A stretch of DNA of 23,397 nucleotides, from positions 1 through 23,397 of IMG/VR virus record IMGVR_UViG_2645728091_000017; one strand, written 5' to 3'. Every line of letters starts with the position of its first letter. The stretch's first letter is position 1. A program made the translations under genes and the position numbers. This stretch comes from a virus. Lineage: Duplodnaviria > Heunggongvirae > Uroviricota > Caudoviricetes. The notes beneath the pieces were generated by a model. That model had not been told where the DNA came from and ran no database searches. It saw only the letters and a program-made list of their open reading frames with translations. Shown here in pieces: positions 1 to 23,043 of the stretch.

Positions 1-717
1 ATGCTGATTGTATCTGTTCTCAAATGCGGTAAAGAATTTACCCCCAAACACGCACAATGGCTGCATAGCCAATTTAAAGGCATACCTTCAATTTGCTTAA
101 CTGATGCTGGAAGTATCCCTGGTGTTGAAACCGCACCGTTAATGCATAACCTTCCAGGTTGGTGGTCTAAGATTGAGCTTTTTAATCCAAACCATCCGGT
201 AATAGGTGATAAGGATCTGCTTTATTTTGACGTTGATGTTGTCATAACTGGTGATATCAAAATCTTTGATGCGGCGAAAGAGTTCACTATGCTGCGTGAG
301 TTTAACCACCCTTCCAGGGTTAACTCATCCATTATGTTCATTCCTGCGTCTATCAAACAATATGTTTGGGATGCGTTCTGGACTGACCCCGAAAAAAATA
401 TGCATGAATGCCAAACAGAAGATAAATGGGGTGATCAGGGATTTCTGGGCAGCGTCATGAAACCTGTATTGTGGCAAGATATAATTCCCGGCTCTGTTGT
501 TAGTTACAAATGCCATATAGCCACACGCAAAATGATAGGTTACAACCCTGACTTGGCATCAGATTATGCTACTGGCAAAGTTCCTGATGATGTTTCAGTT
601 GTATGTTTTCACGGTAGTCCTCGCCCATGGCGAACAGGGTTCAGTTGGGTTCCTTCCTTTTCTGTACGCGATACCCTGTATGGTAAATTCAAAAATTTTA
701 AACTCAGTTTGAAGTAA
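1..717 (+). CDS. Hypothetical protein, AT-rich moron; possible DxD-motif glycosyltransferase-like enzyme (speculative). May be 5'-truncated by the window edge
   Basis: 238-codon ORF on the strand opposite the late operon, visibly lower GC than the structural genes, followed by a strong intrinsic terminator. Contains LLYFDVDVVITGD (D-x-D-like). No family recognised with confidence. Confidence 0.35.
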   Translation: MLIVSVLKCGKEFTPKHAQWLHSQFKGIPSICLTDAGSIPGVETAPLMHNLPGWWSKIELFNPNHPVIGDKDLLYFDVDVVITGDIKIFDAAKEFTMLREFNHPSRVNSSIMFIPASIKQYVWDAFWTDPEKNMHECQTEDKWGDQGFLGSVMKPVLWQDIIPGSVVSYKCHIATRKMIGYNPDLASDYATGKVPDDVSVVCFHGSPRPWRTGFSWVPSFSVRDTLYGKFKNFKLSLK

Positions 718-758
718 TTTTTTTCAGTTGTTCTATAAGAAAAAATTTCTATCCATCC

Positions 759-789
759 CGCGCCACATCTGATGTCGCGGTTTTTTTTT
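759..789 (+). terminator. Rho-independent terminator downstream of ORF 1..717
   Basis: Imperfect GC-rich hairpin CCGCG(CC)ACATC-T-GATGTCGCGG at 759..780 followed by a T9 run at 781..789. Confidence 0.6.
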
Positions 790-1193
790 ACAGAATACCC
801 CCCTTACTAACGATCCACAAACACCGCCTAAAATTTAATTTTTCTTTTATTTTCTGTGAGTTGTAATTTTACGCCGATCCCTCACAGATCCTTTTTACTG
901 AAAAAAAATGAAATTTCTTTCAATCATTTCAGTTTCTGTTCTCCGCAAAGCCGCCAGTAATGGTGCGGTCTGGCGCTCTGGTTTGTAGAAAAATAAAACT
1001 GAAAAAATTTCCAGATCCAGAAACCGCAGGCGGGTGCGGTGTAGTGCCGTTTTTGTCTGCGAAAGATTTATTTTGTCTGCATGTGGCTACCTCAGAGCGT
1101 CGCTGTGAATTTGATCTTATTGCGGTGTCGCAGTGGTTTCCCTAGTGTTGTCCCGCCTGCTGAGAGCGTTCTGTGCGGTCTGGTGGTGGGTAC

Positions 1194-1215
1194 AAAAAAA
1201 CCCGCACAATGCGGG
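1194..1215 (-). terminator. Rho-independent terminator for the minus-strand operon end
   Basis: On the minus strand, hairpin CCCGC-ATTGT-GCGGG followed by a T7 run (plus strand shows AAAAAAA then CCCGCACAATGCGGG), about 40 nt past the stop at 1258. Confidence 0.55.
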
Positions 1216-1257
1216 TTAAGGTGTGTTCAATTCATATCAACCGATATAAGAACGTAG

Positions 1258-1590
1258 TTACTGACAGGCTTTTTGTCCAATGTAGTATGCAATTGAGCGG
1301 TCAACTATAGGGGCCATATTTGGATCTGGTGCCGAGTTATTCATCTGCTCGATGGTCTCACCGTCTCCAAGATATTTAACTGTCCCGGCAGTACAGTCGT
1401 ACAGCCGCTTTGAATATGATGTTCCAGAAGGCCCCTTTCTTTCGGTTGTTATAGTAGCCATGCTGCCGTCGCGAGTCTTATCTAAAATCGTGTAACTAGC
1501 CTTCGTATCTGTTGGCACATAAACAACCTCAGCCGCAAACACATTGAATGAAACTGCTGCTCCTACAGCTAATATAATGAAATTTTTCAT
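1258..1590 (-). CDS. Small secreted or periplasmic protein of unknown function (moron at the distal end of the tail operon)
   Basis: Internal Met gives MKNFIILAVGAAVSFNVFAA-EVV, a typical Sec signal peptide, preceded by an AGGA/AGGG Shine-Dalgarno-like stretch. Mature part about 90 aa with two Cys. AT-richer than neighbouring genes. The ORF track's longer N-terminus (to 1650) lacks signal-peptide logic. Confidence 0.45.
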   Translation of the reverse strand: MKNFIILAVGAAVSFNVFAAEVVYVPTDTKASYTILDKTRDGSMATITTERKGPSGTSYSKRLYDCTAGTVKYLGDGETIEQMNNSAPDPNMAPIVDRSIAYYIGQKACQ

Positions 1591-1680
1591 ATCCCTATTC
1601 CTATCATTTGAGTATGCAATAATCCTATCAAGGAACTGAGAAAACGACAAACCTCGCGTTTTGTGGGCTGTCTGGAATGG

Positions 1681-3384
1681 TCAGGCAATGATGTTCTGGT
1701 ACTTGCTCCGGGTCTGTCCGGCCTTTGTCGCCGTCTGGGTAAATGCTCCGGCATTGGTTGGCGTACCAACACTGGGGTGCGAATGGCTTGCGCACTGCTG
1801 CGCCAGTTCTGCCAGTAAATCAATGGTGTCCAACATCATGGTCAGCGTGTTTATACTCTCACTGCCGATATGGACGGTTGGCCCCATAATCTGCTGACCG
1901 CCCGATGCCACCGATTTGCGTAATGCAGCAATCTTTTCAGTCAGGGTTCCCCCCACATCAACATCTACGGCTCCCGCCACATTAGTGGACTGTTTCCCGA
2001 TTATCTCAGTTTCATCATTCCCTTCAATACTGGCCAGCCTGTTACCTTTCACCGCCTGGCTATAGTCACCAGCACTTACCTGCTGGATGGCTCCGGCCAG
2101 CAGTGTGGCGGTTCCCAGTACCGTGGTTTTATCCGTGGCTTTCACCGTGGTTTCACGGCTGACCAGTTCGCGCTGTTCCGTATCGGCTTTTACGGTTCGC
2201 GCCATCGATGTTTCACTGATGGTCTGATCGGTCTGCCTTACCCAGTCACCCGCCTGAGTCACCCTCTGAGATACTTCTTCCCGCTGCTGCTGTAATTGCT
2301 CACCGGGTTTAACGTCCGGCAGGCTGGTACCATCCGGCAGCGTCTGCCTGATAAAGGGTTTATCCGGTCTGCCCCCCGTGAATGCAACCTCAACCAGCGT
2401 CCCTTCTGGCGGAAACTGAAACATACCCGAATCATTCCCGGCCATCGGTACCGGCAACGGCACCGCTGAATAAACAGGCGTCTGATTGTCCGGGTTTCCG
2501 TCTGCGTCAAGCAGCTGCACGTCCACGGCGTAACGTGGCCGGAAGGGATCGGCAAAGTTACCGCTTTTTACCGGCTCTGAATGCGCCACGACTCTGGTCA
2601 TCTTTGGCAAATGAAGCCCGGATGCCAGTTCCGGGTAATGGCTTTCAATCTGCCGTTGCGCCGGTGTTTTCTGCAAAGGTTTACCCGTTGCGCGGTTTCT
2701 CGGCGTCCATGTGATCGCCATCGTGTCATTCGTCAGGTGAACTTTAGTCACGCGTTCACCGTTCATCTCCACCCCTGGCCGCATAGTCTGGATCACTGGT
2801 AATGTCACAGAGTTACCGCCAGCAGCCCCCTGGCTGAACTCTGACGGGATTTCTACAGGACGACCGGCAAACAATGACTTTTCTGCGCCGCCGACGTAAA
2901 GCGAACCATCAGGCAACTGGTACCAGATGTAATCCTGGATACTGAACGCCCTGCCCAGATTGTTCAGCAACTGATAACCAGTACCGTTATGGGTAAAATG
3001 TGGGATGGGGGTATCGCTGTACTGTGCATCAGGCACACTGACTGTGATCCCGCTGTTTTCTTCCAGCCAGCCCGCAATTTCACGCAAAGTCGGGTGTTGA
3101 AACGAACATGGCCACATCCTCTCAAACACACCTGCCAGCTCACGAATGAACAGACGCTGAAAACCGTTTTCAGCGGGCTGCGATCGCTCCACATACCCCG
3201 TAAACCAGCGCAAAAGCAGATCGGTATACCCCACATCCAGCCGCACCAGTTTTCCGGTGTAATCGGTTGTTGTCTCTGCGGTGATGAAGCCCCGGCCGCA
3301 GCTGTTCAGCTCCAGTACCAGGCTGGCATCCACCAGGTGAACTTCATCCGTTGAAAGATAAAGGCGTTTTACTGGTTTCATCAT
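1681..3384 (-). CDS. Late-operon protein, 567 aa, function unassigned (position suggests a tail or baseplate component, possibly gpD-like hub)
   Basis: Long ORF with high GC; its start overlaps the stop of the upstream gene at 3384. No diagnostic motif recognised; assignment is positional only. Confidence 0.5.
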   Translation of the reverse strand: MMKPVKRLYLSTDEVHLVDASLVLELNSCGRGFITAETTTDYTGKLVRLDVGYTDLLLRWFTGYVERSQPAENGFQRLFIRELAGVFERMWPCSFQHPTLREIAGWLEENSGITVSVPDAQYSDTPIPHFTHNGTGYQLLNNLGRAFSIQDYIWYQLPDGSLYVGGAEKSLFAGRPVEIPSEFSQGAAGGNSVTLPVIQTMRPGVEMNGERVTKVHLTNDTMAITWTPRNRATGKPLQKTPAQRQIESHYPELASGLHLPKMTRVVAHSEPVKSGNFADPFRPRYAVDVQLLDADGNPDNQTPVYSAVPLPVPMAGNDSGMFQFPPEGTLVEVAFTGGRPDKPFIRQTLPDGTSLPDVKPGEQLQQQREEVSQRVTQAGDWVRQTDQTISETSMARTVKADTEQRELVSRETTVKATDKTTVLGTATLLAGAIQQVSAGDYSQAVKGNRLASIEGNDETEIIGKQSTNVAGAVDVDVGGTLTEKIAALRKSVASGGQQIMGPTVHIGSESINTLTMMLDTIDLLAELAQQCASHSHPSVGTPTNAGAFTQTATKAGQTRSKYQNIIA

Positions 3385-3929
3385 TAACCCAAAGCATCAT
3401 TGACGGGCTTCAGCACTTTGCGTTCAAACCACGTCAGTTTTTCTTCATCTTCTCCGGCAGACTGGCCACCGTTCTGTCCCGCACTACCGGCAGTCTGTTT
3501 TTTTGCGGTCGTCTTACCTGTTGCCCTGGCCTCTCGCTTTTCCTGCACGCTGATATGTTCCGCCAGTGTGAATGTCACCAGCCAGGACATTTTCCCGTCC
3601 TGCTGGGGTGCATCCAGCATTCCGCTGAACGTTGCTTCACGAAAGTTAACAGCACGGGCAACTTCATGCGCCACACGGTACTTCTGACGATTACCACTGG
3701 CATCGGTCGCACTGGCCAGCTCAAAAATACGCTTCAGAATTTCAGGCTGTTTAAAAGGTATTTCACCGCTGATCCGCAGTTCCTTTCCCTTTGCTCCCTG
3801 CTCTGATTTTGTTGTGGCGCTGGTCTGGCCGGACTGATCTTTATCCTGAAATTGCTGTGAAACAGTCACCCGCATGTTTTTCAGCTGGATGGCCTCGCCA
3901 TTAAGCGCCAGTGTCGGGATCGAAGTCAT
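3384..3929 (-). CDS. Late-operon protein, 181 aa, function unassigned (possible tail protein)
   Basis: ORF translationally coupled to both neighbours; charged and Gln/Ala-rich C-terminus. Family not recognised. Confidence 0.45.
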   Translation of the reverse strand: MTSIPTLALNGEAIQLKNMRVTVSQQFQDKDQSGQTSATTKSEQGAKGKELRISGEIPFKQPEILKRIFELASATDASGNRQKYRVAHEVARAVNFREATFSGMLDAPQQDGKMSWLVTFTLAEHISVQEKREARATGKTTAKKQTAGSAGQNGGQSAGEDEEKLTWFERKVLKPVNDALG

Positions 3930-4662
3930 GAATCATTCCCTTTATTCCATCAAGATTATCGCCAACCAGCATCATGGCAGCGGTGTAAACGGCAGACTGC
4001 TGCGGAATGTCCTTCATCAGTTCCAGTAACGTGGTGCCGGTATCTCCGCTGGCAGTAAAAACCCACGCTCTGGCACTCTTTCCCTGTAAATCATTCAGGC
4101 CGCTGGCCACATCTCTGATAAGCTGGTCACGCAGCTGCGTGAACTCGCCCAGCTGTTTTTTCAGCCCTTCGATATCAAACCCGGCACACGCCGCCTTTTG
4201 TGCCTGGCTGATTGCCATAGCAGATAAAGCTGCCCTGCTGGTTGGTACAGACAGTGGAATGGACGCAGGTAACGCTGCGGCGGCTTTCGCCGGGATCTGC
4301 ATCTTTTCAATAGCCAGCGCTGCGAAGGATTGCGCCAGCCGTTTTACCTGCGTGAATGCCGGGGCGGGGAAAATCCCGACCAGGTTATTCAAGCTGGCCA
4401 TAAAGTTTTCCTGCGTCTGTCCGGTGACCATCATAATCACCACGTCCGCATTCCCCCCCGTTCCGGCCAAGCGTTCAGCAAGATAGCGAACGGCATTAAC
4501 CGGGCTGAGATATGCCCCGTTCGCAGTCTGCTGTCCCAGCCCATAAATCCACGGATGCGCAGGGACGATCGAACAGTTCAGCGCAGCAACAGAATCCGTG
4601 AAGGCCAGACGTGCTTCACGCCACATTTCCAGGCACCTCCGGCCACACAATTTCCGGTGCAT
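3901..4662 (-). CDS. Late-operon protein, about 240-253 aa, function unassigned
   Basis: ORF immediately downstream of the tail fiber assembly gene in the same operon. True start may be the internal Met of MWREARLAF. Family not recognised. Confidence 0.45.
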   Translation of the reverse strand: MHRKLCGRRCLEMWREARLAFTDSVAALNCSIVPAHPWIYGLGQQTANGAYLSPVNAVRYLAERLAGTGGNADVVIMMVTGQTQENFMASLNNLVGIFPAPAFTQVKRLAQSFAALAIEKMQIPAKAAAALPASIPLSVPTSRAALSAMAISQAQKAACAGFDIEGLKKQLGEFTQLRDQLIRDVASGLNDLQGKSARAWVFTASGDTGTTLLELMKDIPQQSAVYTAAMMLVGDNLDGIKGMIHDFDPDTGA

Positions 4663-5207
4663 CTTCCGGTTGAATACGGTTCAGTAAAACGCGGTATTTT
4701 TTCCATGCGGTAAGCAGCAGTGCTTCTTCTTCGGTCGCCATGTCTAAATCAACGGCATCCTGCAATGTGGCAATGGCGTCACTGGCCTGTTTAAGCAGTC
4801 TTTTCTTTTCGGCATCTGCCTCGCTGACTAATGCAATTCGCATGGCCTCCGCATCATCCACCCACCCACGCCTTACCATTCCATTTTTGCCAGGCATTAG
4901 CCGGTGCTAACGTGGTTGTCCCTTCCGGGTACCCCCCTGGCTCGATGATCACCACTTCATTACCGTTTTCTGTATCAAACACCACCTCACCACGATGATC
5001 CTCACGGGAAATCCATCTTTGCTTCTCTGAATCAAAAATTGCCACAAACCCCGCTTTGATTACCGGTGGTTTTATTGTGGTGCAGTTGACTGGCAGTCCG
5101 GTATGCGCAGGTATAAAAGCATCACCCGAACCAATAAATTCATTCGTGTCTGAACGCAGGTTATAAACAGTAACTGTTTGATCGGTTTCACTCATTTTAA
5201 AAGTCAT
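4616..5207 (-). pseudogene. Tail fiber assembly protein (Tfa/gpG-like) split by a frameshift
   Basis: N-terminal part (4854..5207, MTFKMSETD...QKWNGKAWV) and C-terminal part (4616..4897, ...DDAEAMRIALVSEADAEKKRLL...) lie in different frames and together resemble one Tfa. The junction is in the repeat TGGGTGGGTGG (minus strand, about 4857..4868). Confidence 0.6.
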
Positions 5208-6781
5208 TATGCGAGTCTCACTATGTAGTTAAATGCAATATTCTTAACTGTCGTTTCTGTGTTACCCGACGCGGCGACGCTAATCGTGTGACTATGTGCG
5301 CCAATTGCTACGGTATGAGAGTGAGCGCCAATACCTACGGTGTGATTGTGTGCGCCAATAGCTACGGTGTGCGCATGGTTTCCCGCCGAACTTGTAGTAG
5401 TCGCGCCCTTATCCTGTCTGGGTACACCATAATCCGAACCGCCAGACTGCACACTAACGGCAAACCCGACAGTGTGCGTATGCGCCCCCGTTGTATTTGT
5501 CGTTTTCGTGCCATAGTCAAATGTGCTCGCCGTTTTAGTACCGTAATCAAATGAGGATGTTGATTTCGTCCCCAAATCGGTACTGGATGCACTGGCTGTG
5601 TGTGAGTGGGATTTATTACCATCATCTTCATAGGACAAAACTTCGCGGCCGTCTGGTTTCCCTTTGATTGTCCAGCGGCGCATGTCAGGAATAACACCCG
5701 ACGGATACGCGATGGCCAGTAAAGGATATGCAACCTTATCAAAAGATTGTCCCTGCATAATTGCCCACCCTACAGGCGGGATATTCGTTGGCCACGGAAG
5801 CGGCACACCAACCGGCAGAACATCACTACGACTTAAAACCGCCAGTTCACCCAGTTCCAGACTTTTTCTGGCTTTCGCTTTGTCGTTAACATCAGCAAGG
5901 TTTGCATCCTTACGCAAAAAATCGCTGCTGGCCTGCTGTTCTCCCAGGCTACCTTTTGGCCGTAGATCCGTGATGTTGCCATCCACATCAATGCTGGCCA
6001 CCGCAAACACATAATGCTGAACCCCGTTCTGAACGTAATCAGCAAGATTTGCAGCCACCGTGATTTTGCTCTGCACATTCCAGACACTGGTCAGCGTCCC
6101 TGTCCAGCACACATCCAGCCAGACTTTTACCGGCTTTGTCGTCACCGTAATATTCTGATTCGCAGCCAGTGACGCACGAAGTCCAGCCACATAACCCGTG
6201 CCTTTCGTGACAAAAAACTGATTGCCGGTTTTGGCTACCAGATACCCGTTACCAAAAAACGCAGCCGCACCATAGATATCCATATTTTCAAGGCGCTGGC
6301 GCTCATCCATTCCGGCCATACGCGCGGTGAAATCAATCTGCCAGGTCTCAGCGGGCGTATTAATCCCGGTTTCCGTTTGTGCGCCGTTGTACTCCATCAG
6401 AAACGAGCGGGTCAGCACGTTCCCCTGTTGCCCTTCTTTTGTTTTCAGTTTCTGCTGTGATGGTGCATGGACAATCATTGCCAGCGTACCGCTGGCCTTA
6501 TTGAGCAGACCGATCCAGTTAAAACTGAAATCACCCACATCTGCGCCCAGCACTACGGAATAAACCACCCCGTTTTCATTCACCACACCTGTGCGGGTAA
6601 CAGACTGCCGGTGAACAATCTGTGCTGTCGGGGGCAACGCTTCATTGCGATCAACAGGTGTATCCGGGTTTAAATCCGGCACACTGGCAAAAACAAATTC
6701 GTCCAGTAGTACCGGTTCACCCGTTGCGCCCTGCTGTGCTTTCCAGTTTTCAAACGCCAGTGTGATGGCTGTCTGTGACAT
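5207..6781 (-). CDS. Tail fiber protein (P2 gpH-like N-terminus; C-terminal tip with His-x-His repeats)
   Basis: 524 aa. Position between the baseplate genes and Tfa, with a 1-nt stop/start overlap (TAATG) with Tfa. C-terminus carries DYGTKT(A/T)S(T/S)F repeats and GAHxHTV(A/G)I repeats. Confidence 0.8.
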
Positions 6782-6791
6782 AAAAACCTCC

Positions 6792-7385
6792 TTACAAACT
6801 CGCGCTGAATATTGCGCTGCGGGCTTCCGTCCCTGCTAACGTCGCCGGGTAAACCATATATTCCCCCTGATCCCATCCAGCCCTGATAACCAGGCTTTCA
6901 GACGTGATCACCTCAAACTGATAACGGCGGCATGTTCGCCCGTACTGGCGGATTATCTGGATCAGCAGCTGCGTGTTGTCTGCAATCTGGCTGTCTGTAA
7001 CCCGAACAAGAATTACATCCCAGTCGATATCCGGTTGCCGTTCTAACAGCTCCACATAACCAATCCCCAGCCGTTCAAAGATATTGATAAACCCCTCTAC
7101 TGAACCGGCATCCCGCGCATTCACAAAGGCAAAAGCCACGCGTTTGCGGAACAGAGGCAACGGTTCACCATCAAAACGGGTTATATCCCGGTCATAAGCC
7201 AGCAGGTTCAGTAATGCCGGTGTACACGTCAGCGGATCAAACTGATTCGTTGGCCAGGTAACCCAGCCGTAAACCTCAGCCCAGAACCGCCGCGCCGTTT
7301 TCAGCAATTTCCCCGGTTCGCCTTTATTCATCCAGGAAGGCAAGACCATCCCGGCCAGCTTTTTCATGAACTCATTCATTCTCAA
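6792..7385 (-). CDS. Baseplate protein, P2 gpI-like tail protein I
   Basis: About 195 aa, located between the baseplate J-like gene and the tail fiber gene as in P2 (J-I-H order). Confidence 0.55.
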
Positions 7386-8558
7386 TATTCACCGTCAGTG
7401 ATTTCAGACGCGGCACGCTAAGTTCACTGGTAATGTCTCCCAGCGAAAATGTCAGTGATTCTGTCTGCGCAAAGGTTTTATGAATTTCCCGCCCCAGTTG
7501 CGAAAAGGAAAACCGTGAATATGGCCACGTCTTTCTGACGTCATAATCAGCATTTTCACGAAAGGCACAGCGGATCATGTTCTCAATGCCGCCCTTCAGC
7601 GTTTTCACCTCTTCGTCACTGAAGTTGTTTAGATTTTTGACATAAACAGTGACGGCCAGATCGTGAAGCGTTTCCGGCATGGGATAACACTGCATATCAT
7701 CACCGTGCCCGTGATGTCCCAGCGTGTTGATATAGTCATTCACCGCATCCACGAACGGCGCTGATGCCACCCCACTGTCCAGTAATAAAAAGGCGTTGGC
7801 TGTTCCTGGCCCCCTCGGTGCTTCATGCTCAAAGAAAATCCGATCTATACTCAGCCCGGCAACACTGGCGATCATTGAGCGATAGACCGCATCAGTGTGG
7901 TAATTCCCCACAAGATTAAACTGATTGCGGCAACGCTCGCGCAGTTCATCATCACTTTCCTCGTCAGCCCCCGGTACGGTCAGCCAGTTTTCCTCACTGA
8001 CCACATGGCTGATACCACTGACCGCCACCGGCAGAATGCGGTAATATCCAGGCGCAAGGTTATACGCGCCCCCGGTGCCGGTGGCTTTCACCGGCAGTAA
8101 TGCGCTGGCCGCACCGGAAGCGATCACCACATCCTCAGTGGTGGCCACCTCATAAACTCGCCCGTTAATGCGTTCTGTCTGGATAACCGTCCCGGCTTTC
8201 ACCGTCACCACAGCTTTTGCATCTTCTTTGAAGAAGCGGATCACCCCATGTGCAGCGCTCGCCGGTTTTGCCGTGACGTTCACCGCCCAGGCCAGCAGAC
8301 GCAACATGCTCCCGCTGGCTGTGGCCACAAACATATTGGCCAGCACGGTTAACACCAGAACGTCTTTAAGCCACATCACCGGGGCAGTCACAATGGCGGT
8401 GATTAATCGCCAGAACGGTGACATTCGGGATGTATTGGTGATAATTCCCTCATCTGCTGCAATTGCATTGAAGCGTTCCCGCACTTCGGCTTCCGTTACC
8501 GGCATACCGCTGTCTTTCACCACTTCTTCAAAATCAACCTGCGGTTTTTCCGTCATAA
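7372..8558 (-). CDS. Baseplate J-like protein (P2 gpJ / Mu gp47 family)
   Basis: About 395 aa with family-like composition, upstream of the gpI-like gene. Start is probably MTEKPQVDFEE, directly abutting the upstream stop; the ORF track extends it to 8610. Confidence 0.7.
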
Positions 8559-8882
8559 ATCCACCTGCGCAGAGATCCCGCCAAAATCGTATGTACTCGC
8601 GGTTACCCACAGCCGCTTCTGACTTTCTTCACTGATTTCCACCGTACCCGGCACAATGCGTTCATCATCTTCAATCAGTAATTCCATGCGGGTAAAAATA
8701 TCCGCTCTCATTGTCGGGCTACGTTCGGCGATTAATTCCGTCGCTAACCCGCTTTCAATAATGGAATGAATAATGTCCTGCCCGATACTTTTTCGGTTAT
8801 TACATAATTCAGGTTCATTACCGGTATTCAGAACAAAGTCACCGCCCTGAATCAGCAAGTCGATATAGAGAACATTACTCAT
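8553..8882 (-). CDS. Small baseplate protein (gpW/gp25-like or DUF2590-like)
   Basis: About 110 aa between the tape measure and baseplate J genes. Start MSNVLY overlaps the tape measure stop (ATGA) with GGAG 9 nt upstream. Confidence 0.5.
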   Translation of the reverse strand: MSNVLYIDLLIQGGDFVLNTGNEPELCNNRKSIGQDIIHSIIESGLATELIAERSPTMRADIFTRMELLIEDDERIVPGTVEISEESQKRLWVTASTYDFGGISAQVDL

Positions 8883-17796: not shown

Positions 17797-18600
17797 TTAC
17801 AGGAAATTAAATTTACCCGCTTTTTCTGAAATCTTACGCCCCGGTGTACGGGTGGATTTATTACCCAGATCGTTAAAACGTTTAACGATATCTTTTGCAT
17901 TATCACGAATAGCCGCAAATTCTTCGGTATCGACCACTTCCGCAATGGTATCCACATCACCCTGAACATCATTCAGCTGATTTTCAATTTTGGCCACACG
18001 GCCTTCCAGTTCGTTTACCGCGTTGGCCAGCGCCTGTAACTTATCATCACCCTGCGCGGCATCATCAGGCGGCGTTTCATCTTCAAACTTTGGCTTAATA
18101 CCAAACAGTTTCTGCCAGTTCTTCATTCTTGCTTCCTGTTTAATTTTTCCATCACGGGAAATTACACAGCTGTAATATCCCTGCTTTGTTAATTTATTGC
18201 GCCGACTACTAAAGCGCAGCCGTGTGGTGCCAACGCTAGCAGGTGTATCTGCTACCGCCAGCCCTTTCAGGTAAGTACGTCCGCTACCACGCCAGTTCTC
18301 ATCCGGTTCAATCGAGAAGAACAGGAGCTGATCTTCATGGTTGGCGAAAATTAAACGCATATTCGGGCAAAGGCTGACATAAAGCCGCGCCAGTCCGTCA
18401 TCGCCATCATGCCAGGTGGCCTCCAGCACCTCCCCAAAATTACCGCAATCATCCTCGTGTTCTGGCCAGATCAAAGCGACATAGTGGTTATAGTCATAGG
18501 TTTCCCCCATATCGATAATCCACTGGCGTTTAATTTCTCTGCCGTCAACGGTATCCCCTTCGGTAGCAACACACAGCCAGTCAGTTTTTAAATGCGACAT
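17797..18600 (-). CDS. O: Capsid scaffolding protein, P2 gpO-like
   Basis: 267 aa; N-terminal VATEGDTVDGREI motif resembles the P2 O N-terminus; coiled-coil acidic C-terminal half. Confidence 0.85.
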   Translation of the reverse strand: MSHLKTDWLCVATEGDTVDGREIKRQWIIDMGETYDYNHYVALIWPEHEDDCGNFGEVLEATWHDGDDGLARLYVSLCPNMRLIFANHEDQLLFFSIEPDENWRGSGRTYLKGLAVADTPASVGTTRLRFSSRRNKLTKQGYYSCVISRDGKIKQEARMKNWQKLFGIKPKFEDETPPDDAAQGDDKLQALANAVNELEGRVAKIENQLNDVQGDVDTIAEVVDTEEFAAIRDNAKDIVKRFNDLGNKSTRTPGRKISEKAGKFNFL

Positions 18601-18761
18601 ATCCCCCCTGATTTATTCACCGACGCTGCAAATCAATTATTGCCAAATAAAACCACCACCGCATCACGCTTTATTCTGAACAGTTCGGTTATCACGTATT
18701 ACCGAACAGACGCGAATTAACACCACCGTTTTTTCATAACAGCCACGGCATAATTATCCGC
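18601..18761. promoter_or_regulatory. Divergent late promoter region between O and P, with a 7-bp perfect dyad GTTCGGT-N11-ACCGAAC at 18683..18707
   Basis: 161-bp intergenic region between divergently transcribed O and P, as in P2 where divergent late promoters sit. The dyad is read directly from the sequence; its function as an activator site is inferred. Confidence 0.4.
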
Positions 18762-20478
18762 ATGGCTAAATACTCAGAAGAACTAAAAGGCGTTGTCCGC
18801 GCACTTTATTTGCGCCGCTATACGCCAAAAGAAATTGCATCAGAACTAAATCTGCCGAATGCGCGGATCGTTTACTACTGGGCTGAGAAATACAGCTGGG
18901 CTGATTTACTCAGTTTTGAAAGCACAGAGGAGGCAATTGAACGTCGCTACCAGCTGCTGGCCAGCCGCGATAATAAAACCGATCTAGACCTCAAAGAAAT
19001 GGACATGCTGATTGCCCACGCCACAAAGCTACGTGCTCAAAGCAATAAGCATAAAGAAAAGATGGCCAGCGGCCAGAGTAACGGGCAGGCAGCTGCGCGC
19101 GACAGCAACAGCGATGAACCGCGCCCCAAACGCAAAAACAGGAAAAACGATATTTCTTCTCTGACTCAGGCGGATTTTGACACCTGGGCGGAAGAACATC
19201 TTTTTGAATACCAGAAACACCTGCGCAGGAACATCGGCCAGCAGGTCAGGAACATCCTTAAAAGCCGCCAGATCGGTGCCACCTGGTACTTTGCATTTGA
19301 AGCCTTTGAAAACGCGGTCATGACAGGCGATCCGCAAATCTTCCTGTCTGCCTCCAAAGTCCAGGCGGAATACTTCCGGTCTTACATCGTCAACATTGCA
19401 GAACAGTATTTTGGCATCACGCTGACCGGCAACCCGATCCGCCTCAGCAACGGCGCTGAACTGCGTTTTCTCTCAACCAACAAAAACACGGCACAGTCCT
19501 ACAGTGGCCACCTGTACTGTGACGAATATTTCTGGGTGCCTAACTTCGCCAGGCTTAACGAAGTGGCCAGCGCAATGGCCACCCATGACAAATGGCGTAC
19601 CACCTACTTTTCAACGCCCTCAGCCAAAACGCACCAGGCTTACCCGTTCTGGACGGGTGAAGAATGGAAACAGGGCAGCAAAAAACGCGCGGCCGCCCAG
19701 TTCCCGTCCTTTGATGAAATGCGTAACGGCGGGCGGCTTCAACCTGGCCAACATCGAGAAGCTGCGCAACCGCTACAACACCGCCACCTTCAACATGCTC
19801 TATATGTGCGTGTTCGTAGACAGCAAGGATTCCGTATTCAGCTTTTCAGACCTGGAAGCCTGCGGCGTGGAGGTGGATACCTGGCAGGATCACAATCCGG
19901 ACGCTGCGCGGCCATTTGGTGACAGGCCAGTATGGGGAGGATTTGACCCGGCACGCAGCGGCGATTTGTCGTGTTTTGTGATTATTGCCCCGCCGATGTA
20001 CGCCGCAGAGAAATTCCGCGTTCTGAAGGTCATTAACTGGAAGGGCATGAACTTCCGCTATCAGGCCAGGCAGATCGAACTCCTGTTTAAAAAATACAAC
20101 TTCACCTATCTGGGAGTGGACGTTACCGGTATTGGCCAGGGTGTTTTTGACAACATCCAGCATTTTGCCATGCGCGTGGCCGTCGCCATTCGTTACGACA
20201 TGAACACAAAAAATCAGCTGGTACTGAAAGCGGCGGACGTGGTGGAAAGTCAGCGTATTGAATGGGACAAGAACCTGAAAGAGATCCCGGCCAGCTTTAT
20301 GGCTGTACGCCGCACCACCACGCAAAGCGGTAACGCCATGACATTTGTCGCTGACCGCAGCCAGGACACTGGCCACGCGGAGGCGTTCTGGGCAATTACC
20401 CACGCCCTGCATAACGAACCACTCAACTACGAAAACAAACCGAAATCCCGCTGGGGTGTAAGGAAAGAGGCTGCATGA
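18762..20478 (+). pseudogene. P: Terminase large (ATPase) subunit, P2 gpP-like, interrupted by a +1 frameshift
   Basis: N-terminal ORF (18762..19922) is terminase-like up to ...SFDEMRNG, then reads a nonsense tail. The downstream ORF (19504..20478) becomes terminase-like from GFNLANIEKLRNRY. Junction is at GGCGGGCGGC (19728..19737); removing one G restores a single reading frame of about 570 aa. Confidence 0.8.
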
Positions 20479-20530: not shown

Positions 20531-21535
20531 ATGAGCATCATCACATTCGGCAAACCGGAACCTGTCCTGACCACCGGCACGGATTACCGCGACATCTGGT
20601 ACGACAATGCCGCAGATCACTTTACCCAGCCGATTGACCGGCTGGCACTGGCACAGCTTATCAATCTGAATGGTCAGCATGGCGGCATCATCCACGCCCG
20701 GAAAAATATGATTGTGTCTGATTATATGGGCGGTGGCCTGACTTACGACCAGCTGGAAGCCGCAGCGTTTGACTATACAACCTTCGGGGATATTGCGATT
20801 GGCAAAATCCGCAACGGCTGGGGGGATGTGATTGCCCTGGAACCTTTACCCGGCCTGTATATTCGCCGCCGTAAAGTCAGGGACAACGCCACAGACCAGC
20901 CCGGCGATTATGTGGTGTTACAGGATGGTGAACCGCAGGTATGGCCGCAGGAAGATATCATTTTTATCAAGATGTACGACCCGCAGCAGCATATCTACGG
21001 GCTGCCAGACTATATCGGTGGCGTACACTCGGCATTGCTTAACAGTGAAGCCGTGATTTTCCGCCGCCGCTACTACCACAACGGCGCTCATACTGGCGGC
21101 ATTCTCTATACACGCGATCCCAGCATGACGGATGAAATGGAAGAAGAAATTGAACAGCAGCTGCGTGACAGCAAAGGTATCGGCAACTTCTCGACCATTC
21201 TGGTGAACATACCTGGCGGGGATGGGGATGCAATCAAGTTCATTGAAATGGGGGATATCTCTGCAAAAGATGAATTTGCCAACATCAAAAACATCAGCGC
21301 ACAGGACATTCTCAACGCACACCGCTTTCCCGCTGGGTTGGCCGGAATTGTCCCGCAGAACACCGCTGGCCTGGGGGATGTTGAAAAGGCGGAAAGGATT
21401 TACAAGAAAAGCGAAATAGCACCTATTCAGCGCCGATTTATGACTGCCGTGAACAACGATCCCGAAATACCGAAACGTCTGCACCTTCACTTTGATTTAA
21501 GTTACACAGAATCAACGGATAAGGATGCGGCATGA
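20531..21535 (+). CDS. Q: Portal protein, P2 gpQ-like
   Basis: 334 aa directly downstream of P on the same strand; size and composition match P2-family portal proteins. Confidence 0.85.
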   Translation: MSIITFGKPEPVLTTGTDYRDIWYDNAADHFTQPIDRLALAQLINLNGQHGGIIHARKNMIVSDYMGGGLTYDQLEAAAFDYTTFGDIAIGKIRNGWGDVIALEPLPGLYIRRRKVRDNATDQPGDYVVLQDGEPQVWPQEDIIFIKMYDPQQHIYGLPDYIGGVHSALLNSEAVIFRRRYYHNGAHTGGILYTRDPSMTDEMEEEIEQQLRDSKGIGNFSTILVNIPGGDGDAIKFIEMGDISAKDEFANIKNISAQDILNAHRFPAGLAGIVPQNTAGLGDVEKAERIYKKSEIAPIQRRFMTAVNNDPEIPKRLHLHFDLSYTESTDKDAA

Positions 21536-21585
21536 GGCGAAAAAGGCTAAAATCCAAGCATCATTTAACAGCTGGAGCATGGAAT

Positions 21586-21855
21586 ATGCGAGTTCTGAAA
21601 ATCGAATGCCCGGAATGCGGCTCAAAGGCTGTTATTCGTAAAACAAACCGGAAGCACCGGCAGATTGCGGATATTTACTGCGCCTGTTCAGATGTGGAGT
21701 GTGGCCATACGTTTGTTATGAATCTGACGTTCTCCCACACTCTCAGCCCCAGCGCGAAAACAGGTGATGCGATGGTTCAAGTCCTACTTAACAACTTATC
21801 ACCGTCTCAAAAACAGATGGCACTGGATTTACTGAAAGCCACACCCGCGGCGTGA
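21586..21855 (+). CDS. ogr: Ogr/Delta-family zinc-finger late-gene transcriptional activator
   Basis: MRVLKIECPECG...YCACSDVECGHTF gives the Cys arrangement typical of P2 Ogr / P4 Delta; GGAG 8 nt upstream. An alternative upstream start at 21532 overlaps the Q stop (ATGA) with AAGGA upstream. Confidence 0.75.
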   Translation: MRVLKIECPECGSKAVIRKTNRKHRQIADIYCACSDVECGHTFVMNLTFSHTLSPSAKTGDAMVQVLLNNLSPSQKQMALDLLKATPAA

Positions 21856-22005: not shown

Positions 22006-23043
22006 ATGTTTGGTTCAAAGCTTGTAACTAAACTGTGGGAAACCACAGCAGAAAAAGGTATTGGTGCTTTATGTAAGCCCTGGCAAATGCGTAGAGAGGG
22101 AGTTGCCAGTTTAGAAATGGAAAGAAAAAAAATGTTAGTTCTGGCTCAAACAGAGATGGATGTCGAGAACATAAAAAGCGGAAAAGCCATCGTTTCGTTA
22201 AATGATCTAAACAATCCCAAATTGATTTCATTAGAAAATAAACAAGAGTATGATAATTCAGGTTCAATGGAGCCTTACATAGATTTCGATAACTTAAAAA
22301 ACGCAGTAAGTACTCAACTCATTGCAAATGAAGTTCAAAAAGAAATAAACATTGCCAAGTCATTATTTGTTGCTGAAGAAATACTTTCTGTTGATCAGTC
22401 TGAGCCTACTGCTGAAAATATCGAAAATGATTGGTTGCTAAGGTGGAGAGATAGTGCTGCGACAAGTAGTTCTGAGAAGCTACAGGATTTATGGGGAAGA
22501 ATACTTGCAGGTGAACTAAAAAGCCCGGGGTCGTATTCATTAAGAACTGTTGATTTCATCAAAAACCTGACACAAAAAGAAGCAAATAAAATACAAAAAC
22601 TATTCTCTTTCCTCTTTCTTGATAGAATTATCAAGGGGGAAAAAGGTAGTTCTAAATTCGACAATGAATACTTAGATAATGAACTGAACTATAATTTTTT
22701 ATCTGAGATGCAGTCACTCGGAATCATTGCTGGGGTTGAGTCAATGGGATTAGCCTCAACTTTCAAGTCTCTTAGTGAAGAAACCTTTTTTTATTATCAT
22801 ATGTATAATGATAAAGTAATGCAGATTAAACATGACGATCCAGAGAAAGAACTTAAACTAAGGGTTTTAATTCTAACGCCACTTGGCCATGAGTTAAAAA
22901 GTTTATGCCCTGCTACAATTGATAGCATTTATCTCAATCATGTTATTGATGCGATTAAATCATTAGATTTTAAAGTTATCATTGGTGATTGCATACGTAA
23001 AGAAAATGGGGAAATATACTCTAAAAATGAAGTAGAAGTTTAA
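22006..23043 (+). CDS. AT-rich cargo protein of unknown function, 345 aa; candidate single-gene anti-phage defence or exclusion protein
   Basis: Long ORF in markedly AT-rich DNA between the ogr-like gene and a hairpin terminator. AGGAG 8 nt before the ATG. Contains NDWLLRWRDSAATSSSEKLQDLWGRILAGELKSPGSYSLRTVDFIKNLTQKEANKIQKLF, which I recall as DUF2806-like (unverified). Not a virion, lysis or replication gene. Confidence 0.7.
   Translation: MFGSKLVTKLWETTAEKGIGALCKPWQMRREGVASLEMERKKMLVLAQTEMDVENIKSGKAIVSLNDLNNPKLISLENKQEYDNSGSMEPYIDFDNLKNAVSTQLIANEVQKEINIAKSLFVAEEILSVDQSEPTAENIENDWLLRWRDSAATSSSEKLQDLWGRILAGELKSPGSYSLRTVDFIKNLTQKEANKIQKLFSFLFLDRIIKGEKGSSKFDNEYLDNELNYNFLSEMQSLGIIAGVESMGLASTFKSLSEETFFYYHMYNDKVMQIKHDDPEKELKLRVLILTPLGHELKSLCPATIDSIYLNHVIDAIKSLDFKVIIGDCIRKENGEIYSKNEVEV

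Follow-up and report, generated by a model that had tools for sequence, protein, structure and literature searches.

A conserved four-unit repeat array between the predicted divergent late promoters of a P2-family prophage as candidate operator of an Ogr-like zinc-finger protein of the HP1/K139/ESSI-2 branch

The stretch of viral DNA analysed here at its full length of 23,397 nucleotides, in the following called the window, is a P2-family (Peduoviridae) prophage with ESSI2_ev129 (88%), ev040 (83%), Cronobacter ESSI-2 (76%) and, at about 74%, ev239 and Yersinia YenM_324 as nearest phages. On the minus strand, an almost gapless block begins with the gpO-type capsid scaffold gene as the first leftward late gene (17797-18600; PF05929, 1.2e-34; phrog_73) and continues with gpN capsid, gpM small terminase, gpL, gpR and gpS-like genes as well as sheath, tube, lysis, tape-measure, baseplate and fibre genes. 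The plus strand carries the gpP-type large terminase gene as the first rightward gene (18762-20478, split in two open reading frames), followed by the gpQ portal gene (20531-21535) and an open reading frame with a PF04606 zinc finger (21532-21855). A dyad noticed in a preliminary description of this DNA had been assigned to the region between the divergent O and P genes, and its neighbours are indeed the genes of the gpO scaffold and of the large terminase gpP. The minus-strand late gene block is closed at its distal end by a strong intrinsic terminator with an 8-bp stem and a T-run (1199-1217, minus strand), the sole strong minus-strand terminator found within positions 1-18700, which likely ends a leftward unit of approximately 17.4 kb. 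As the late genes orf17-orf39 of phage K139 also run to one annotated terminator, no more than two late transcription units seem to exist in this lineage, and one repeat array in the O-P gap would serve both.

With respect to the state of this particular prophage, the two large terminase reading frames (18762-19922 and 19504-20478) show a 59-bp frameshifting deletion near 19729 relative to ESSI2_ev129, and the closest E. coli copies, with an identity of about 98%, exceed the query in length by 59 bp. Owing to the split terminase, the prophage is probably packaging-defective. A glycosyltransferase-type moron (phrog_1962) occupies positions 1-717, and a 345-aa DUF2806 open reading frame (22006-23043) follows the zinc-finger gene where ev129, ESSI-2 and YenM_324 possess a small open reading frame and a replication gene on the opposite strand, and the prophage may have lost its early region or had it replaced. 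The prophage type is rare in E. coli, with matches to positions 18450-19900 in 46 of 5,426 complete genomes, all of them chromosomal and with a best identity of 97.8%.

In the O-P gap (18601-18761), a pattern search of the window locates GTTCGGTTATCACGTATTACCGAAC, which is of the form GTTCGGT-N11-ACCGAAC, at 18683-18707. The perfect 7-bp inverted repeat with its 11-bp spacer is thereby borne out as the sole match in the window, unique even if up to three mismatches are allowed, and its distance from the P start, previously given as about 55 nt, amounts to 54 nt from the end of the right arm to the ATG at 18762. Dyad symmetry continues inward to arms of 10 bp with one mismatch, GTTCGGTTAT and GTTCGGTAAT, arranged around CACGT. 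The half-sites had been described as unlike the TGT-N12-ACA of P2, and the entire O-P gap is in fact devoid of any TGT and holds neither of the P2/186-type dyads TGT-N12-ACA and TGTTGT...ACAACA; the four matches to TGT-N12-ACA in the window are all intragenic, with 6.5 expected by chance. The dyad could formally fold into a perfect stem of 7 bp with a loop of 11 nt, but that it acts as a nucleic acid structure such as a hairpin, terminator or cruciform, or represents a chance palindrome, is barely plausible. Only 0.03 chance matches are expected in the window at up to two mismatches, conservation of the arms is at the sequence level and lacks compensatory changes while the loop varies, there is no T-run and no terminator is called, and as the element is located upstream of both predicted transcription starts it would not be transcribed.

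The 7-bp dyad had been put forward as a possible cognate site of the Ogr-like activator. While it exists as such, the unit that is conserved is TTCGG(W)TAT, embedded in a four-unit array of 43 bp. The dyad constitutes the inner pair of TTCTG-N5-TTCGG-N13-CCGAA-N5-GCGAA at 18674-18716, with the inner TTCGG at 18684-18688 and the inner CCGAA at 18702-18706, an outer left unit TTCTG (18674-18678) located 10 bp upstream of the former and an outer right unit GCGAA (18712-18716) located 10 bp downstream of the latter. Written in full, the proposed operator of the Ogr-like activator reads TTCTG-aacag-TTCGGTTAT-cacgt-ATTACCGAA-cagac-GCGAA. Alignment of the O-P gaps of six phages displays an invariant core TTCGG...CCGAA together with the TAT that opens the former 'spacer' (T at spacer position 2) around a centre of 13 or 14 bp, and the outermost G/C and innermost T/A of the 7-bp arms vary among relatives.

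To assess conservation more widely, 80 genomic loci were fetched via the Ogr-like protein; divergent O and P genes are present in 47 sources (46 loci and the window), which represent 46 distinct sequence contexts. Across these 46 O-P gaps, the inner TTCGG/CCGAA is conserved to 87-100% per position, with 100% at most positions, the outer left TTC (positions -9 to -7) to 96/85/96% and the outer right GAA (+13 to +15) to 96/98/93%, as compared with a majority base of just 35-50% at the positions neighbouring the array units. The consensus TTCkG-N5-TTCGGWTAT-N5/6-ATAWCCGAA-N5-CmGAA places the outer units exactly 10 bp outside the inner arms, a phasing that is kept across bacterial orders. The array ranges from Enterobacterales to Vibrio and Photobacterium, K139 included, and in the Vibrio/Photobacterium loci that carry it the first 120 residues of P are merely 39-50% identical. 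Conservation among relatives, on which the proposed function of the dyad hinged, is thus strongly confirmed. In Salmonella phage SI7 (L090, 2722-2765), the array is intact solely in its O-proximal half (24.7 bits), and its P-proximal half is degenerate (ATCGG...GTGGC) though an Ogr-like gene is present.

On the other hand, the expectation of further copies upstream of other late operons was disappointed with all three search forms, namely the dyad with up to three mismatches, TTCGG-N12-15-CCGAA and a weight matrix of the half-array. TTCGG-N12-15-CCGAA occurs once in the window and once per relative, including the complete ev129 and ESSI-2, and always in the O-P gap. With the weight matrix, the site scores 44.7 bits in the window and 43-46 bits in ev129, ESSI-2 and K139, and the next-best site per genome reaches at most about 1 bit (less than 0 bits in the window) at a shuffle maximum of 11.3; the model was trained on the sites that it scores, which makes the high self-scores circular and leaves the absence of second copies as the informative part. 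The array is consequently single in the window and in the complete ev129, ESSI-2 and K139 genomes, in none of which a further copy precedes the tail operons, where P2 has pV and pF and 186 has pJ. We relate this absence of second copies to the apparent organization of the lineage in two late units sharing one site.

A promoter scan of positions 18500-18900 did not detect a sigma-70-type -35/-10 pair. In the rightward direction, for the P-Q-ogr unit, the hexamer CATAAT (18749-18754, plus strand) is the predicted -10 element with a predicted start at approximately 18761, and the hexamer at the -35 position, CCGTTT (18726-18731, plus strand), is weak with one out of six matches to TTGACA. In the leftward direction, for the O-N-M-L-tail-lysis unit, AATAAT (18636-18641, minus strand) is the predicted -10 element with a predicted start at approximately 18629, preceded by the likewise weak ATGCGG at the -35 position (18659-18664, minus strand), which includes a conserved GCA at 18661-18663 (C 93%). 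The O-P gap thus displays the lack of a functional sigma-70 -35 element that is characteristic of activator-dependent promoters. The single array is equidistant, with 54 bp, from the two -10 boxes, in line with one site shared between both promoters, as annotated in P2 and 186.

The same geometry is found in relatives. Counted from the first base of the proximal inner unit, the P-side hexamer that best resembles a -10 box begins at +48 in 39 of 46 sequences, being CATAAT in 33 and TATGAT in seven of the 46; on the O side, the best hexamer begins at the identical offset of +48 in 42 of 46. The distance from the -10 element to the nearer half of the array is fixed at 47 bp for N13 and N14 centres alike. 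As the offset does not depend on the width of the centre, each promoter is phased to its own array half. If transcription starts 7 nt after the predicted -10 element, as assumed throughout, the inner unit would be located at about -57, the outer unit at about -47 and the dyad axis at about -66. The proximal unit pair would be located at approximately -52 from the predicted start, compared with -55/-56 for the dyad of P2, the starts in the window being those that follow from the -10 prediction.

An alternative to an operator of four units is that the inner inverted pair alone is the activator site, occupied by one symmetric dimer at about -66 from both starts, one helical turn further out than the -55 of P2, with the outer units being incidental or contacts for the alpha C-terminal domain of the polymerase. 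Conservation is highest in the inner units, which continue into the 9-bp palindrome TTCGGWTAT/ATAWCCGAA; the centre-to-centre spacing of these 9-mers, 14-15 bp, is similar to TGT-N12-ACA; and the predicted starts are approximately 132 bp apart, about two helical turns more than the 111 bp of P2. Nevertheless, we consider this alternative unlikely, since the outer TTC/GAA is conserved to 85-98% with exact 10-bp phasing across orders, since the centre of HP2 is flanked by two units on one side but by three on the opposite one, since the -10 element follows the proximal half and not the axis upon a change of the centre from N13 to N14, and since SI7 retains one half-array.

The predicted starts also have consequences for the transcripts. 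On the O side, the predicted start leaves a normal leader of 29 nt with AGGGGGG in front of the O start codon at 18600. On the P side, CATAAT is separated from the P start codon at 18762 by just 7 nt, a Shine-Dalgarno sequence is lacking, and the predicted transcription start falls at or next to the start codon, so that the terminase mRNA is predicted to be leaderless or near-leaderless. As leaderless mRNA is unusual, the P-side -10 assignment may be off. K139 similarly has TATGAT followed by 6 nt and then the ATG, and relatives from Xenorhabdus have around 30 nt more between the -10-like box and the P start.

The proposed activator is encoded by the Ogr/Delta-family zinc-finger gene at 21532-21855 on the plus strand, with 107 aa or, from M19 at 21586, 89 aa. 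The identification of an Ogr-like protein at 21586-21855 in the preliminary description was correct, with a longer start at 21532 and a PF04606 zinc finger of the type CX2CX22CX4C. In alignment with P2 Ogr the cysteines C26, C29, C52 and C57 of this zinc-binding motif (PMC3931495) are invariant. The shorter M19 start is annotated in several phage records, and the N-terminal extension of 18 residues is conserved in Enterobacterales relatives and absent from the Vibrio and HP2 proteins. The window protein scores 70.8 bits against PF04606 (cut-off 26.3), K139 Orf13 55.8, the HP2 protein 49.0 and P2 Ogr 76.9 bits. Its identity to K139 Orf13 is 56%. With 24% identity to P2 Ogr, and as P2 Ogr alone matches the NCBIfam Ogr equivalog NF007241 (177.6 bits) and the window, K139 and HP2 proteins do not, the protein belongs to a separate subfamily. 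A solved structure for a member of the Ogr/Delta protein family was not found.

The gene is the third in the rightward unit, a position after the portal gene which is the arrangement of K139 (PMC8537503). In the sequence ATGA its start codon overlaps the stop codon of Q, suggestive of translational coupling to the portal gene, and the promoter scan did not find a sigma-70-like promoter on the plus strand upstream of it. In HP2 (L089, NC_003315), an open reading frame of 86 aa with a PF04606 match of 49 bits and 39% identity to the window protein is located directly downstream of the portal gene (approximately 9290-9553, minus strand), where RefSeq has no gene call.

The association of the array with this Ogr subfamily holds in both search directions, from the protein to the array and from the motif to the gene. 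For the reverse search, IMG/VR was scanned with the motif only (17 specified bases, N13 form), which gave at least 119 stretches. Among the matches listed, 118 are found beside P and/or O starts, that is 112 between divergent P and O genes and six at a locus edge adjoining P or O, with one stray. Presence of an Ogr-like gene was checked in 55 of the listed matches, those with at least 3.7 kb of DNA stored beyond the P start. An Ogr-like gene is located on the same strand 2.5-4.5 kb downstream of the P start in 47 of the 55 and at 4.7-5.1 kb in four more, so that, besides the window, 51 of the 55 motif-selected loci have it downstream of P-Q; no Ogr-like match was obtained in the remaining four, which have enough DNA. 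As negative controls, P2 and 186 with canonical Ogr and B have best array scores of 4.7 and 6.4 bits, respectively, equivalent to chance level.

This distribution also bears on whether another regulator binds the array, be it a CII-like activator, the immunity repressor, Cox or a host factor such as CRP, FNR, IHF or LexA, all of which we regard as improbable. To our knowledge, TTCGG-N13-CCGAA does not resemble the consensus sequences of CRP, FNR, LexA or IHF. CII-like proteins are likewise encoded by ESSI-2-type phages and K139, but the CII of 186 is 44% identical to that of ev129 and 186 does not have the array, HP2 has the array but no CII homologue, and the array is the same although K139 CII is just 22-25% identical to the CII-like proteins of ev129 and ESSI-2. 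Furthermore, a CII-like gene was not found in SI7 or in the stored DNA of loci L042, L070 and L084. The CII-like protein as array binder was therefore rejected on distribution. As for the immunity repressor and Cox, the gene types differ across phages while the site is invariant (PMC3448106).

Six loci without P and O in the stored DNA (L042, L070, L072 and L084-L086) carry the array upstream of the Ogr-like gene at a distance of 260-320 bp. Its position in L042 (5736-5778) is between the Ogr-like gene and a divergent gpR/sheath tail operon, and in L084 between the Ogr-like gene and a divergent lysozyme/LysC lysis cassette, with a CI repressor gene downstream; the coordinates are approximately 5697-5741 in L084, L085 and L086 and approximately 5676-5719 in L070 and L072. 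The presence of the array beside the Ogr-like gene in loci without P and O indicates that it travels with the late operons and the activator gene and not with the packaging genes. These loci could be deletion remnants, tailocin-like elements or satellites. The array adjoins the large terminase gene and phased repeats resemble sites of protein assembly, so that a packaging or replication signal, i.e. cos or a terminase-binding site, was considered. This we judge very improbable: the array is kept next to the Ogr-like gene and tail or lysis operons where P and O are missing from the stored locus, its symmetric phasing to the -10 boxes has no packaging rationale, cos of HP1 and HP2 is reported beside attP (PMC2771037), and in P2 and 186 the O-P gap is where the activator site is located, with cos lying past the portal gene. 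A P2/186-type cos 19-mer or junction was not detected in the window.

Seven other loci (L041, L043, L044, L047, L049, L059 and L060) encode more divergent Ogr-like proteins (50-62% identity). Their Ogr-like gene is located approximately 4.5 kb downstream of a capsid-then-scaffold gene pair on one strand, the reverse of the order in P2. A divergent terminase gene, a divergent O-P gap and the TTCGG array are absent from such loci with N-O order on the plus strand (L041, L043 and others), which possibly represent a different element type, for example a satellite.

Cumulatively, we propose, with a probability of roughly 0.75, that the array is a four-unit, 43-bp operator located between divergent activator-dependent late promoters and most likely bound by the Ogr-like protein of the phage. 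On sequence grounds, it is most likely a lineage-specific operator of the HP1/K139-type Ogr subfamily and represents a known switch with a varied sequence. On the axis of symmetry of the two late promoters, with P-Q-ogr on one side and O-N-M-L plus tail and lysis genes on the other, the array would most likely be occupied by several protomers of the Ogr-like protein (21532-21855). The two sides of the array are inverted relative to each other, the units within each side are direct repeats, and the centre varies between N13, N14 and, in HP2, N24, which is unusual for the site of a rigid dimer. By analogy with P2 Ogr, the bound protein would recruit or stabilize sigma-70 RNA polymerase at both promoters, presumably through contact with the alpha C-terminal domain; P2 Ogr acts via RNA polymerase's alpha subunit, as ogr mutations suppress rpoA109 (PMC11434276, citing King et al. 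1992). As the activator gene is part of the rightward unit, activation would feed back positively and become self-reinforcing.

A more far-reaching scenario is that the HP1/K139 branch of Ogr proteins switched DNA specificity along with binding mode, with several protomers on two to three 10-bp-phased TTCGGATAT units per side in place of a TGT...ACA dyad at each late promoter, and that a single array runs the whole late programme in both directions as a self-amplifying all-or-none switch with a leaderless terminase mRNA. Taken as a whole, this scenario is tentative and rather doubtful.

That a small zinc-finger protein activates the late genes of P2-like phages is textbook knowledge, but the details have been worked out for the P2/186/P4 branch only. 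The HP1/K139/ESSI-2 branch, prophages of which reside in Vibrio cholerae, Haemophilus, Xenorhabdus, Cronobacter, Salmonella and E. coli, hereby gains a precise, testable operator and a candidate protein-DNA pair. A specificity different from P2 combined with one site per genome would make this a natural Ogr subfamily pair in which to investigate minimal zinc-finger DNA reading, and a compact bidirectional late promoter can be of use in engineering. There are also gains for annotation, as in K139 sigma-70 boxes have been drawn over array units and in HP2 the ogr gene call is missing.

With respect to known systems, one close counterpart is the repeat_region 12555-12610 of HP2 (NC_003315), annotated as 'most likely contains promoters for late genes'. 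It has the same location, the 9-bp unit TTYGGATAT, 10-bp phasing and overall dyad symmetry, but differs from the window by having five units (two on one side and three on the other), and a centre (N24) that is wider by approximately 10 bp; the record names no activator. In K139 (AF125163), the gap between orf16 and orf17 holds TTCCG-N5-TTCGG-N14-CCGAA-N5-CCGAA with symmetric -10 boxes as in the window, and the 'zinc-finger protein' Orf13 adjoining the portal gene is an ogr homologue (PMC8537503). The K139 record shows putative sigma-70 -35/-10 boxes, some of which overlap array units, and no annotated activator site. In the region 15488-15562 of K139 (L087), the P16 boxes are located on array units (-10 at 15488-15493, -35 at 15514-15519), and the conserved -10-like TATGAT nearer to the orf16 start is unannotated. 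Prior recognition thus consists of the 'repeat region' note of HP2 and the naming of K139 Orf13 as an ogr homologue. An earlier description of the array motif was not found in the literature searched, in which text matches to the motif were confined to primers and which did not include the K139 genome paper (Kapfhammer et al. 2002); as the authors of the phiRSY1 study cite that paper for the P2 consensus, it possibly contains an earlier discussion of the K139 late promoters.

The Ogr motifs predicted in the P2-like phages Smp131 and phiRSY1/phiRSA1 are of the TGT/ACA type. The P2 consensus is TGT-N12-ACA (PMC3931495); from sequence, TGT-N12-ACA has been predicted upstream of the late operons of Smp131, with one dyad assigned to both PP' and PO', and TGTTGT-N13-ACAACA upstream of those of phiRSY1/phiRSA1 (PMC3931495, PMC5694545). 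Unlike the array of the window, the Smp131 and phiRSY1/phiRSA1 motifs are found at three or four late operons per genome.

In P2 itself (NC_001895), one 'activator binding site; pO, pP' is annotated at 3057-3087; the mapped starts, 3016 and 3127, are 55-56 bp away from it. P2 resembles the window in that one site of the dyad type occupies the axis between the divergent P and O promoters, which have a poor -35 element, and in having a phage PF04606 zinc finger as activator, which for the window protein is the candidate role. The two differ in sequence (TGT-N12-ACA type as opposed to TTCGGWTAT units), in architecture (one dyad as opposed to four phased units), in geometry (an axis 55-56 bp from mapped starts as opposed to about 66 bp from predicted ones) and in copy number, with additional P2 sites at pV and pF and a single array in the window. 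Also, ogr of P2 adjoins attP, whereas the Ogr-like gene of the window follows the portal gene. In 186 (NC_001317), one annotated site (3798-3817) of the B protein, a C4 zinc-finger homologue of Ogr, activates the divergent p12 and pV. It differs by its sequence GTTGTG...TCCA without a TTCGG array (best score 6.4 bits) and by an extra copy at pJ, and the B gene has its own CI-repressed promoter. Both P2 and 186 have one annotated site for the two divergent promoters together, and a single shared site is thus the norm of the family. The window follows this norm with a different sequence, so that its layout mirrors P2 and 186 and entails no new principle.
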